A stretch of DNA of 64,000 bases from Verrucomicrobiota bacterium (GCA_047947115.1 CP170459.1:3904001-3968000), one strand, 5' to 3'; counted from the first letter of the stretch, positions 40,374-64,000 are shown. Numbers and translations: made by a program. Notes: generated by a model from the letters alone, not told the origin.

Positions 40374-40448
40374 TGGTGCGCGATACTGGGTTCGAACCAG
40401 TGACCCCCACAGTGTCAATGTGGTGCTCTACCACTGAGCTAACCGCGC
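40374..40448 (-). tRNA. tRNA-Val(GAC)
   Basis: Reverse complement GCGCGGTTAGCTCAGTGGTAGAGCACCACATTGACACTGTGGGGGTCACTGGTTCGAACCCAGTATCGCGCACCA: cloverleaf, GAC anticodon, TTCGAA T-loop, encoded CCA. Confidence 0.97.
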
Positions 40449-60422: not shown

Positions 60423-61427
60423 TTATTTACCTTCAAAAATATTTCTTCCCAGCACCAGGTGTTCCATCTTTCGATCCGCGACCGATCTCGGCAGCATCCA
60501 AAAACCACAGTCCGGGTGTATCCACTTCACTCGATCCGCTCCGAGCACCTTGATGGCGGATTCCAAACGTTGCGCAACGAGGTCCGGAGTTTCCACCACG
60601 TTGTCTTTGATGTCCACCACACCGATGCCGAGTGCAATTTCAGGTTTCAGTCCCTTGAAAACCTCCAGTTCTTCATAGCCCCGACGTGCAAACTCCAGCA
60701 CCAAATGATCCACGTTCAGTTGATTGAAAAATTCTATCAAGCACTTCCAAAACCCTCTCTGGATGGACTGTCCCCCGTAATTGCCGAAGCAGAGATGCAG
60801 TGCTTTTTCACCTTGAATCGCGTTCAAGACCATGTTGACAGGTTCGTGGGCCCATTTGGCATCTTCCGGATGACCGGGGAGGTTGGCCTCATCTACCTGG
60901 ATCATTGGAGCATCCAGGGCGGCCACCTGGTTTGCCAGAACACGCGCAATGGCATTGGTCAAGGTTTCCAAATCTCCGTAATGCCGATCGATCAATGTCT
61001 TGGCCAGCATGTATGGAGAAGTCAGTGTGAACATGGTTGGATGGGGCGTCAGGCATTTGATGGACTGCCAGGCTTCGGGCAGATTCAGGCTGCCTTCATG
61101 GATGGACCCTGTCACCACTCCGGGAGGACGCGTCCGAAACTGCATGCCTTTTGCTTTTTGATACTGGAGCCATTCCTCGCGACTGATATGTGGACTGATT
61201 CCACCAAGTGGTCGGATGAAGTATTCAATCATTCCGTTGGTCTCAGGGTGATTTACGTCAAACCGTGAAAGTTCGCCATCGGAAATCATGTCAATCCCAG
61301 CCAATTCCTGAACTTTCAACACGGTTAACATGGCGTCCCGCAGATTGGGAGATGTTGGGTAAGCCTGCAGCCATGATGGAACAGGATAACTTCCGACCAC
61401 TTGGGTTTTGATCTGGTAATCACTCAT
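60423..61427 (-). CDS. Cobalamin-independent methionine synthase II family protein (catalytic domain only)
   Basis: VVGSYP, QELAGIDMISDGE, IQVDE, HLCFGN (Zn His/Cys), LEFA, GVVDIK, HPDCG; about 334 aa. Confidence 0.88.
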   Translation of the reverse strand: MSDYQIKTQVVGSYPVPSWLQAYPTSPNLRDAMLTVLKVQELAGIDMISDGELSRFDVNHPETNGMIEYFIRPLGGISPHISREEWLQYQKAKGMQFRTRPPGVVTGSIHEGSLNLPEAWQSIKCLTPHPTMFTLTSPYMLAKTLIDRHYGDLETLTNAIARVLANQVAALDAPMIQVDEANLPGHPEDAKWAHEPVNMVLNAIQGEKALHLCFGNYGGQSIQRGFWKCLIEFFNQLNVDHLVLEFARRGYEELEVFKGLKPEIALGIGVVDIKDNVVETPDLVAQRLESAIKVLGADRVKWIHPDCGFWMLPRSVADRKMEHLVLGRNIFEGK

Positions 61428-61493
61428 AAAACTTTGGACAAGCGGTATCCTGCGGCGACTCTTGTCAAAATCCAAGATTGTTTATGAAATGAG

Positions 61494-61521
61494 TTGACAA
61501 TACTCCGCGTTATATCAATAT
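61494..61521 (+). promoter_or_regulatory. Candidate sigma70 promoter for the riboswitch leader
   Basis: Perfect TTGACA at 61494 and an AT-rich -10 region (CAATAT at 16-bp spacing). Confidence 0.55.
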
Positions 61522-61544
61522 ATCCTGATCCGTTGATTCAACGG

Positions 61545-61667
61545 TCTCATGAAGAGTGGTTGAGGGAACTGGCCCTTCGACACCACGGCAACCGATTGAA
61601 AGCGACATGCTCCAATGACCAGGTGCCAAATCCAGCTTGAACCGGAGTCGGTTCGGGAAAGATGAGA
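61545..61667 (+). ncRNA. SAM-I (S-box) riboswitch
   Basis: ctcATgAAGAGtggttGAGGGAaCTGGCCCttcGAcACCacGGCAACC...GGTGCCAAaTCC...GAAAGATGAG matches the SAM-I core; P1 tctcat/atgaga. Confidence 0.92.
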
Positions 61668-61779
61668 TGAATCGTGTTCTGCCCCGGAGTTCTCAAAGCA
61701 TTCTGGATGAAACCGGGGAACACAAATCTCTTCTTATTTCCCTTTTCCGACTTCACAGACCCTTTTTAGAATATTTGTT

Positions 61780-63036
61780 ATGACAACAGAGAACGGTTAC
61801 ATGAAGGCGCTTAAATGTCGCGAGTGCGGCAGAGAGTATCCACTCACGGCAAACCACGTTTGCGAGTATGATTTCGGCCCGCTTGAGGTGGCGTATGATT
61901 ATGATCTTATCAGGAAATCATTCAATCGCAAAACCATCGAGTCCCGGGCTCAGAGCATGTGGCGCTACCGTGAGTTGTTGCCTGTTGCCACCGAACCCAC
62001 CGTTGGTCTTCAAGTGGGGCATACGCCTCTGATCAAGGCGGACCGGCTGGCCAAGCGACTGGGAATCCGTGAGCTATGGATCAAGAACGATACCGTCAAC
62101 TACCCGACGCTCTCCTTCAAAGATCGAGTGGTCAGCGTCGCCTTGAGCCGTTCAAAGGAACTTGGATACAAGACGGTCGCATGCGCCTCGACCGGCAACC
62201 TGGCAAATTCTGTGGCTGCCAATGCAGCATCGGCGGGACTGCGGGCTTTTGTGTTTATTCCGGCCGACCTGGAGCAGGGGAAAATTGTCAATTCCCTGGT
62301 GTATGGACCGGAAGTGATCGGTATCAAGGGGCACTACGATGAGGTGAACCGTCTGTGTGCCGAAATCGCCGGAAAATATGGTTGGGCCTTCGTTAACGTC
62401 AACATGCGTCCCTATTATGCCGAGGGGAGCAAGAGCATGGGCTTTGAAATAGCTGAACAGATGGGTTGGAAACTGCCGCAACACACCGTCGTCCCAATGG
62501 CATCCGGCTCACTGCTTACCAAGATCCACAAAAGTTATCAGGAATTCGCAAAGCTCGGCATCGTGGAAAGTTCGGGCTATAAAATCCACGGAGCACAGGC
62601 GAGCGGGTGTTCCCCAATCACTGTCGCGCATAAAGCAGGACTTGATTTTTTCAAACCGGTCAAGCCTGACACCATCGCAAAATCACTGGCAATCGGAACA
62701 CCGGCCGACGGTTTTTATGCACTGAAAGTCATGAAGGAAACCCAAGGGCATGGGGATGATGTCACCGATGACGAAATTCGTGAAGGCATTCGTCTGCTGG
62801 CGGAATATGAAGGCATCTTTGCTGAAACTGCCGGTGGTGTCACCGTTGGCGTGGCTAAAAAACTCATTGCCAATGGACGCATTCCGAAAGATGATTCCGC
62901 CGTTCTTTGCATTACCGGCAACGGATTGAAGACGCTGGATGCCGTGGTTGGACATGTCGGTAATACCAAGGAAATTCGCCCCAGTTTGAGGGAATTTGAA
63001 GCTCTGCTGAGCGCCGAAGAAAAGGCATCCGCATAA
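61780..63036 (+). CDS. thrC: Threonine synthase-like PLP enzyme (candidate O-phosphohomoserine sulfhydrylase)
   Basis: CRECG..HVCEYDFGPL, MWRYRELLP, PTLSFKDR (PLP Lys), CASTGNLA, RPYYAEGSKS, EGIFAETAGG, ITGNGLK. Confidence 0.85.
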   Translation: MTTENGYMKALKCRECGREYPLTANHVCEYDFGPLEVAYDYDLIRKSFNRKTIESRAQSMWRYRELLPVATEPTVGLQVGHTPLIKADRLAKRLGIRELWIKNDTVNYPTLSFKDRVVSVALSRSKELGYKTVACASTGNLANSVAANAASAGLRAFVFIPADLEQGKIVNSLVYGPEVIGIKGHYDEVNRLCAEIAGKYGWAFVNVNMRPYYAEGSKSMGFEIAEQMGWKLPQHTVVPMASGSLLTKIHKSYQEFAKLGIVESSGYKIHGAQASGCSPITVAHKAGLDFFKPVKPDTIAKSLAIGTPADGFYALKVMKETQGHGDDVTDDEIREGIRLLAEYEGIFAETAGGVTVGVAKKLIANGRIPKDDSAVLCITGNGLKTLDAVVGHVGNTKEIRPSLREFEALLSAEEKASA

Positions 63037-63064
63037 GATTTGAATCAACAGTAAAAAATAAATT

Positions 63065-63340
63065 ATGGCAATTACAGTAAGAATCCCGACACCTCTGCGT
63101 AAGCTAACCAACAACGAGGAATTGGTGGAAATAAACGCCTCCAATGTTGGAGAAGCGATCAATGAGTTGCAGTCCCGTTATCCTGGTATCCAGGAACGGC
63201 TCGTTGATGAATCCGGAGAAATTCGCCGGTTTGTCAATGTCTATGTGAATGAAGAAGATATTCGTTTCCTTCAAAACAAGGAAACAGCGCTGAAGGACAA
63301 TGACGAGATCAGCATCATTCCGGCCATTGCTGGAGGATAG
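63065..63340 (+). CDS. MoaD/ThiS/CysO-family ubiquitin-like sulfur carrier
   Basis: VRIPTPLR..RRFVNVYVNEEDIR..IIPAIAGG with C-terminal Gly-Gly. Confidence 0.93.
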   Translation: MAITVRIPTPLRKLTNNEELVEINASNVGEAINELQSRYPGIQERLVDESGEIRRFVNVYVNEEDIRFLQNKETALKDNDEISIIPAIAGG

Positions 63341-63367
63341 AAAGCAAACTGGTAAGCTTCGATAGTT

Positions 63368-63715
63368 ATGGCCACTCCAAAAAAAGCGAAAAAGGTTGTT
63401 GCAGCCAAAAAAACTGCCAAGCCTCGCAAGAAATCTTCCAGAAAAATGACATCATCCCCTAAGCCGGGTGGCACGCAGCAAACCCGCTTGTGGCTGATGT
63501 ATCCGCCGAAACTGATCACGCGCCCCATTATTCATGAAATAGGGGCTAAGTATAAAGTCATCCCCAACGTCAGGCAGGCTAGTGTTACCGAAGAAATTGG
63601 TATTGTGTGCCTTGAGTTGGCGGGAGAACGTCAGCAAATCAAGTCGGCAATTAAGTGGATGGAACGATTAGGAATTAGTGTAGAACCTGTGGAAATCAAC
63701 GTCATAGAGAGCTGA
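63368..63715 (+). CDS. Stand-alone NIL-domain protein with Lys-rich N-terminal extension
   Basis: LMYP..RPIIHEI..YKVIPNVRQASV..GIVCLELAG..AIKWMERLGISVEP. Confidence 0.8.
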   Translation: MATPKKAKKVVAAKKTAKPRKKSSRKMTSSPKPGGTQQTRLWLMYPPKLITRPIIHEIGAKYKVIPNVRQASVTEEIGIVCLELAGERQQIKSAIKWMERLGISVEPVEINVIES

Positions 63716-63839: not shown

Positions 63840-64000
63840 ATGACAAAACGTGACTTAGTTGTCCGGATAAGCAACGAAACCGGACTGATTCAGCAGGACG
63901 TCCTCGCTGTAGTGCAGCGTACTCTGGATTATATCTCCGAGGCCGTCGCTCGAGGCGAAACAGTGGAATTGCGTAACTTCGGCGTATTTGAAGTCAAAGT
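63840..64000 (+). CDS. HU/IHF-family DNA-binding protein (3'-truncated; not in ORF track)
   Basis: MTKRDLVVRISNETGLIQQDVLAVVQRTLDYISEAVARGETVELRNFGVFEVK. Confidence 0.92.
   Translation, partial: MTKRDLVVRISNETGLIQQDVLAVVQRTLDYISEAVARGETVELRNFGVFEVK

Follow-up and report, generated by a model that had tools for sequence, protein, structure and literature searches.

A SAM-I riboswitch operon of Verrucomicrobiota predicted to encode a MetM/MetO-type homocysteine synthase system with a NIL-domain protein

Introduction

Why should a gene that scores as a threonine synthase lie behind an S-adenosylmethionine (SAM) riboswitch, followed by genes for a ubiquitin-like sulfur carrier and for a stand-alone NIL-domain protein? 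The question is raised by an operon located in a stretch of 64,000 nucleotides (the window) from a Verrucomicrobiota bacterium (GCA_047947115.1, CP170459.1:3904001-3968000). The first-pass annotation of the window had recognised a SAM-I riboswitch leading three tightly spaced genes, for a ThrC-like enzyme, a Gly-Gly-ended carrier and a NIL protein, and had proposed that the enzyme is not a threonine synthase but belongs to a carrier-dependent route to homocysteine. This arrangement was confirmed at the level of the open reading frames and of their families, the aptamer scoring 73.9 bits with RF00162 and the gaps being 28 bp between enzyme and carrier and 27 bp between carrier and NIL. The proposed route is well supported and matches a published system: the operon very probably corresponds to a homocysteine synthase system of the MetM/MetO type under SAM-I riboswitch control, whose catalytic activity is predicted by analogy.

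The Streptomyces pair of a ThrC-like enzyme and a carrier to which the first-pass annotation had referred is real. In Streptomyces albulus, MetM and MetO, together with MoeZ and Mec, are reported to convert O-phospho-L-homoserine into homocysteine via a thiocarboxylate (Hasebe et al. 2024, Appl Environ Microbiol 90:e01247-24). In their available passages, GapMind 2026 describes MetM, which is homologous to ThrC and frequently misannotated, as acting with MetO, MoeZ and Mec, a 2026 preprint gives the same MetM/MetO assignment, and a paper on Microcystis mentions a SAM riboswitch upstream of S. albulus metM as well as metM homologues in cyanobacteria.

Conservation of the operon

The metagenome loci used are short and were chosen by similarity; the closest homologues, with 78-90% identity, belong mostly to Verrucomicrobiota / Limisphaerales. 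A SAM-I aptamer was present upstream of the enzyme in all 16 loci scanned (16 of 80 fetched), and in most of these, inspection by eye showed a GC-rich hairpin with a T run behind it 3' of the aptamer. When the 72 loci offering at least 900 bases downstream of the enzyme were considered (8 of the 80 were dropped as too short), the carrier was found in 64 and NIL in 62. The recurrence of these elements indicates that the architecture is not due to chance. In the genome studied here, the aptamer was the sole SAM-I match (150 of 509 candidates scored). In some related loci (L010, L034, L037, L046, L050, L054, L077) small genes were inserted after the enzyme gene, by eye toxin-antitoxin or nucleotidyltransferase/HEPN-like pairs. 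The carrier and NIL genes remained neighbours despite such insertions wherever both were in view (L010, L046, L077).

The survey was extended to 121 genomes of one Verrucomicrobiota order, this genome included. The enzyme (at least 77% identity) was present in 88 of them, and a NIL match accompanied it in 87/88 genomes, compared with 2/33 of those lacking the enzyme. In a phylum-wide sample the enzyme was detected in 9 of 200 other genomes, with the trio in 7 of these 9 and a SAM-I match at 6 of the 9 loci. The trio is thus a conserved unit.

The enzyme is distinct from the housekeeping threonine synthase

The operon enzyme matched PF00291 and scored 277 bits with the thrC model TIGR00260, above the cut-off of 167, and its matches among solved structures at E<=1e-20 were threonine synthases in five cases out of five. 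It carries a conserved N-terminal Cys motif and a pyridoxal phosphate (PLP) lysine, K114, within SFKDR. The genome also encodes a second, canonical thrC, located in hom-thrC-lysC, whose product is 35% identical to the operon enzyme and obtains a higher TIGR00260 score. Such a better-scoring second thrC occurred alongside the operon enzyme in all ten genomes tested. The operon enzyme is neither the sole nor the best copy and therefore fails as the thrC of the threonine pathway in its genome.

Two segments of thrC, ASTGNT and N-SINP(Y/F)RIEG, which we take to have a role in phosphate binding, are replaced in MetM-like enzymes by invariant ASTGNL and NVNxRPYYAEG. A search of a plasmid collection returned a single record with 53.8% identity to the enzyme, from Nonomuraea gerenzanensis, the next best reaching 37.6%; at this locus (L081) a SAM-I aptamer precedes the enzyme and a Gly-Gly carrier, in that order. 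A quick tree placed 37 MetM-like rows, Nonomuraea among them, on one branch (SH-aLRT 99, the support value of the approximate likelihood ratio test) apart from 6 thrC rows; this quick version comprises neither S. albulus MetM nor named ThrC references, and Nonomuraea forms a long branch in it. One locus (L003), whose given range contains an internal stop, was excluded from the alignments of the enzyme. The enzyme thus shares with ThrC the fold, the PLP lysine motif, a score above the cut-off and the likely substrate, whereas the better copy in hom-thrC-lysC, the separate clade and the changed active-site segments, together with the N-terminal Cys motif and the SAM control, set it apart from the housekeeping enzyme.

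Partner genes and exchange with MetX

The first-pass annotation had found no activator or JAMM peptidase in the window and expected both to be encoded elsewhere, as was indeed observed. A MoeZ-type ThiF-rhodanese protein gave full-length matches to the MoeZ/MoeB-rhodanese models, under their curated cut-offs (515 vs 647 and 550 vs 633), and one PF14464 JAMM protein scored above cut-off at a site unlinked to the operon. No ThrB-type homoserine kinase was found in this genome, where ThrH is the likely source of phosphohomoserine. MetH and CysK are encoded, the latter above cut-off, as is a sulfate-assimilation cluster recognised by motif and by eye; the genes for the MoeZ-type protein, ThrH and MetH are unlinked to the operon. 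MetA was not found in this genome, and canonical metY and metX genes lie side by side, so that in this organism the operon would constitute a second homocysteine route. A complete canonical pathway combined with a trio that is not conserved had been named as evidence against the proposal; the canonical metY-metX pair does exist here, but the trio is conserved.

Across the order, MetX was present in 17/88 enzyme-bearing genomes, against 30/33 of those lacking the enzyme, and MetA in none of the 121. As a consequence, 71 of the 121 genomes possess the enzyme with no MetX or MetA match. TIGR03287, an inexact model that we take as a stand-in for the DUF39 pathway, matched none of the 121 genomes. 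The MetY family was searched in this genome (G000) and five others. Two single-contig genomes (G132 and G153) contain the trio, MoeZ and MetE, and neither MetX, MetA nor a full-length Cys/Met-metabolism PLP enzyme (MetY/MetB/MetZ) was found in them, which makes the operon their best candidate for homocysteine synthesis.

Carrier tails and the role of Mec

The carrier scored above cut-off with PF02597 and TIGR01687, and its best solved-structure profile matches were 3dwg_C, a CysO chain, and 4n6e_B (E ~1e-29). At Verrucomicrobiota operon loci the carriers end in Gly-Gly almost without exception. A JAB-family (Mec/JAMM) match was detected in 17 of the 88 enzyme-bearing genomes of the order, and none was found in G132, G153 or two reduced genomes described below (G090, G114). 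A JAMM protein, the need for which was presumed by the first-pass annotation, is encoded in this genome, but the peptidase is probably not a general requirement of the pathway.

Longer carriers offered a view of what Mec may do. Among the best 120 of 704 carrier homologues longer than 160 amino acids, 97 were carrier-Gly-Gly-NIL fusions of about 170-190 amino acids, found from the carrier side, and 18 were tandem carriers. One of 10 fusion bearers looked up belonged to Omnitrophota. Five fusion loci immediately followed a MetM-like gene and either had MoeZ or JAMM close by or stood at a contig end; one further contig was too short to judge. A second set of 80 metagenome loci, found with an alignment of the fusions, included complete enzyme-carrier-NIL-MoeB/MoeZ-JAMM clusters. 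In this set a JAMM gene was present at 1/37 loci with Gly-Gly-ended carriers, 12/36 with extended and 3/7 with fused carriers, and the same trend was seen among loci of at least 4 kb (1/21, 8/23 and 3/5, respectively). JAMM thus tracks carriers with blocked tails, which fits Mec as a maturation enzyme, the role that GapMind 2026 assigns to it in the MetM/MetO pathway in the passages available. A carrier that already ends in Gly-Gly, such as the one encoded here, would need no trimming by Mec.

Other carrier arrangements were also noted. The tandem carriers among the long homologues (P0124-P0143) resemble polyubiquitin in that two or three carrier units, with Gly-Gly at internal positions, are joined in one polyprotein. 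Two tandem carrier paralogues follow the enzyme in L003, L053, L058, L059, L061, L072, L079 and L227; where read, the first copy is divergent and ends in PAFAGG, PSIAGG or PAISGG.

The NIL protein resembles the methionine-binding domain of MetN

PF09383 was the sole family match of the NIL protein (35.4 bits, cut-off 24). The protein consists of a disordered Lys-rich N-terminus, a folded part covering residues ~36-108 and a conserved tail, EPVEINVIES; it has a single cysteine, and no ferredoxin domain was matched. Its predicted structure was confident over the core, and the top 10 structure matches were all MetN or MetN-like C2 domains, as were 7/7 profile matches. Residues matching P281, N295 and A299 of Escherichia coli MetN are retained; N67, which aligns with N295, is an Asn in 63/66 homologues. 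The N295A substitution abolishes methionine binding in E. coli MetN, according to the part of the study consulted (PMC6233128). Compared with the C2 (NIL) domain of the MetNI importer described there, the protein is alike in fold and in these three residues but differs in being stand-alone or carrier-fused, in R69, invariant in 66/66 homologues, and in its conserved acidic tail. No second NIL match was found in this genome, and hence no MetN.

In the fusion-alignment loci, NIL frequently lies beside MoeB/MoeZ-like genes, and many of these loci contain NIL and JAMM together. A NIL match was seen neither at the Nonomuraea locus nor anywhere in the plasmid collection, and a NIL query against proteins of 203-2000 amino acids gave 28 candidates, none of them significant. 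Prediction of a complex of enzyme, carrier and NIL scored 0.00 in two runs with controls not folded, and is evidence neither way. A literature search found no link of NIL to MetM/MetO, the text and supplements of Hasebe et al. 2024 lying outside that search and possibly mentioning NIL or product release; the supplements of the Microcystis paper gave no NIL match, and the available passages of GapMind 2026 and PMC1779556 do not mention NIL. A candidate function of the NIL tail as a mimic of the carrier tail was rejected, since only a few NIL tails are alike to it (SAIAG, GVIAG) and the usual endings are VIES or TIEG.

A methionine-sensing accessory, as suggested by the first-pass annotation, fits the fold, the residue conservation and the fusion to the carrier, methionine binding being predicted. 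However, the protein is not needed in every lineage, as the Nonomuraea locus and the reduced genomes attest.

Reduced genomes

Two single-contig genomes of 0.9 Mb (G090 and G114; L085, L086, L109-L154) have kept the enzyme, the carrier and MoeZ, while neither a riboswitch at the locus, nor NIL, nor JAMM was found. NIL is therefore dispensable, and its loss together with the riboswitch is what would be expected of a regulator. The PALP enzymes of these two genomes comprise only thrC, the MetM-like enzyme and one that is TrpB-like by its score pattern; no CysK was found. G090 encodes Hom, ThrB, MetK, SahH and SufS/IscS, and with the queries used SerA, CysH and sulfite reductase were not found in it. 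The retention of ThrB, with SerA and CysK not found, favours phosphohomoserine over phosphoserine as the substrate. A search of both genomes for MetH and MetE returned no match. Judging from genome size, their homocysteine might be exported to a host, or the enzyme may make another product there.

Proposed mechanism

By analogy with the Streptomyces pathway, low SAM would let transcription read through the leader terminator. The MoeZ-type protein would then convert the C-terminal glycine of the carrier into a thiocarboxylate, and the PLP enzyme would eliminate phosphate from O-phosphohomoserine, probably supplied by ThrH, before adding the carrier sulfur at the gamma carbon. Homocysteine would be released and methylated by MetH; where JAMM is lacking, our guess is that release could occur by thioester hydrolysis on the enzyme. 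The chances are about even that NIL is a methionine sensor which, as a predicted dimer like MetN C2, would, on binding methionine, restrain the pathway at the protein level, with the enzyme, the carrier or MoeZ as candidate targets; it is in any case not a catalytic need in all lineages. A wider proposal is more tentative and somewhat doubtful, namely that NIL is a free methionine-sensing subunit, delivered elsewhere as a JAMM-split carrier-NIL polyprotein in a 1:1 ratio, and that MetM/MetO/NIL without Mec is the main, unrecognised methionine route of the order (71/121 genomes).

The core MetM/MetO chemistry is already published; what is new is that NIL accompanies the system and in other bacteria is joined to its carrier, that a form without Mec occurs, and that the system and MetX replace one another within the order. 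If this reading holds, a gene annotated thrC would fill the methionine gap of most genomes in an order that is widespread in soil and water, and NIL would be a named feedback regulator, open to testing, of a pathway first reported in 2024. The reading would also raise the mechanistic question of how homocysteine leaves the carrier in genomes with no JAMM match, unlike in the CysM/CysO system.

Comparison with known systems

As far as the available passages describe S. albulus MetM/MetO, the operon has in common with it a ThrC-like PLP enzyme, a ubiquitin-fold carrier, an upstream SAM riboswitch and a MoeZ-type activator in the genome. It differs by the third gene, NIL, which those passages do not name, by a carrier that directly ends in Gly-Gly, by the restriction of Mec/JAMM to a minority of enzyme-bearing genomes, and by a Verrucomicrobiota host with metY-metX. 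With the mycobacterial CysM/CysO/Mec/MoeZR system, in which Mec releases the product, it shares, here by prediction, a MoeZ-loaded thiocarboxylated Gly-Gly carrier, a phospho-amino-acid substrate and a PLP enzyme of fold type II, whereas the enzyme is here of the ThrC rather than the CysK/M family, Mec is mostly not found, and SAM control and NIL are added (PMC3227635, in part). A NIL domain is also tied to homocysteine synthesis in the DUF39 / NIL-ferredoxin / COG2122 pathway of methanogens and Desulfovibrio; in contrast, the present system has no ferredoxin domain and would use a PLP enzyme and a carrier on phosphohomoserine instead of aspartate semialdehyde (PMC5764234, in part).

Objections and alternative explanations

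Several observations weigh against a MetM/MetO-type system with NIL as its sensor. The enzyme passes the thrC cut-off, and a MetY-MetX pair is already present in this genome. A claim of orthology with S. albulus MetM would rest on the Nonomuraea proxy, which has 54% identity and the same architecture and is a long branch in the quick tree. NIL was not found at the Nonomuraea locus or in G090/G114, and since a search of these two genomes gave no MetH or MetE, any homocysteine that they make would have no way to methionine within the cell. The genomes of the order are related to one another and in part incomplete, so that the counts of co-occurrence cannot be treated as independent tests. Finally, according to the accessible part of the Microcystis paper, the Microcystis homologue, which shares 51.6% identity with MetM, both produces threonine and acts as a threonine deaminase, and methionine did not rise in vivo. 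As a side observation, the control Synechococcus elongatus gave both a TIGR03287 match and a NIL match; cyanobacteria may thus have another homocysteine route, which bears on this conflicting result.

Among the alternatives, the one that survives best keeps the MetM/MetO core and makes NIL a catalytic helper, which would bind the methionine-like S-acyl-homocysteine end of the carrier and aid release in the absence of Mec, or else have MoeZ or a methionine transporter as its target. The persistence of NIL next to the carrier when other genes separate the latter from the enzyme, the carrier-NIL fusions, the frequent proximity of NIL to MoeB/MoeZ-like genes in metagenome loci and the fact that most NIL-bearing genomes of the order have no JAMM match would all agree with such a role. 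We nevertheless hold it to be unlikely, as G090 and G114 retain enzyme and carrier with neither NIL nor JAMM matches, NIL and JAMM coexist in many metagenome loci, and the joint loss of NIL and riboswitch is as would be expected of a regulator.

A second alternative is that the system is a carrier-dependent synthase of another sulfur product, be it cysteate, a compound resembling cystathionine, or cysteine made from O-phosphoserine in the manner of CysM/CysO. The CysO chain as best solved match of the carrier, and the maintenance of the system in G090/G114, where the searches gave neither a methionine synthase nor a CysK, point in this direction. However, the enzyme scored far under the cut-offs for cysteine synthase (TIGR01136, 35.5 bits vs 344) and cysteate synthase (TIGR03844, 63.5 bits vs 324.9), this genome already has a CysK, and in G090 ThrB is present and no SerA was found to supply phosphoserine. 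SAM control and the exchange with MetX indicate methionine instead, so that we regard this possibility as very improbable.

Least probable of all is the reading of the enzyme as a threonine synthase/deaminase, either an additional one or one that moonlights, with the SAM switch tuning phosphohomoserine partitioning and with carrier and NIL as co-regulated passengers: although the TIGR00260 score, the solved-structure matches and the activities of the Microcystis homologue speak for it, a better thrC accompanied the enzyme in the ten genomes tested and lay directly beside the operon in 4/80 fusion-alignment loci, the ASTGNT and N-SINP(Y/F)RIEG segments are replaced, a SAM-off switch would lower threonine at high SAM, and the near-complementary distribution with MetX would be left unexplained. 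In L169, L173, L174 and L177, a canonical thrC comes directly after carrier and NIL, and in 3 of these 4 loci it shares the cluster with the MetM-like gene.

Features of the locus and its surroundings

The coordinates of the operon, of its leader and of the other genes mentioned are collected in Table 1. A consensus promoter scan called no promoter at the TTGACA hexamer or elsewhere in the operon leader, and a terminator scan did not call the leader hairpin.

Table 1. Features of the operon and related genes. Positions count from the first letter of the window; those beginning with G000:C1 refer to the genome.
Feature	Position	Strand	Basis
Possible -35 element, perfect TTGACA hexamer	61494..61499	+	sequence
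SAM-I riboswitch aptamer, RF00162	61544..61668	+	73.9 bits vs gathering 44.4, E 1.9e-15
Hairpin and pyrimidine-rich tail, likely expression-platform terminator (atypical)	61674..61740	+	predicted, -16.9 kcal/mol for segment
MetM-like PLP enzyme, ThrC fold, predicted homocysteine synthase, 418 aa	61780..63036	+	PF00291, TIGR00260
MetO/CysO-like ubiquitin-fold sulfur carrier, 91 aa, C-terminus IPAIAGG	63065..63340	+	PF02597, TIGR01687
Stand-alone NIL (MetN C2 / ACT-like) protein, 115 aa	63368..63715	+	PF09383
Divergent MetE-like catalytic-domain gene, directly upstream of riboswitch	60423-61475	-	PF01717; under NCBIfam methionine synthase cut-offs
HU/IHF-like gene, runs on past window	63841-64000	+	
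tRNA gene	40377-40448	-	RF00005
MoeZ-type ThiF-rhodanese protein, 382 aa	G000:C1:5189860-5191008		ThiF domain
ThrH, likely phosphohomoserine source	G000:C1:1956655-1957260		331 vs 223 bits
Second MetE-like catalytic-domain gene	G000:C1:534666-535697		

The MetE-like gene upstream of the riboswitch was considered as a member of the operon and rejected, as it adjoins the operon in just 2/80 related loci; a second such gene is present in the genome. The HU/IHF-like gene begins 125 bp after NIL and is found close to the operon in 18/80 related loci, which probably reflects ancestral synteny.

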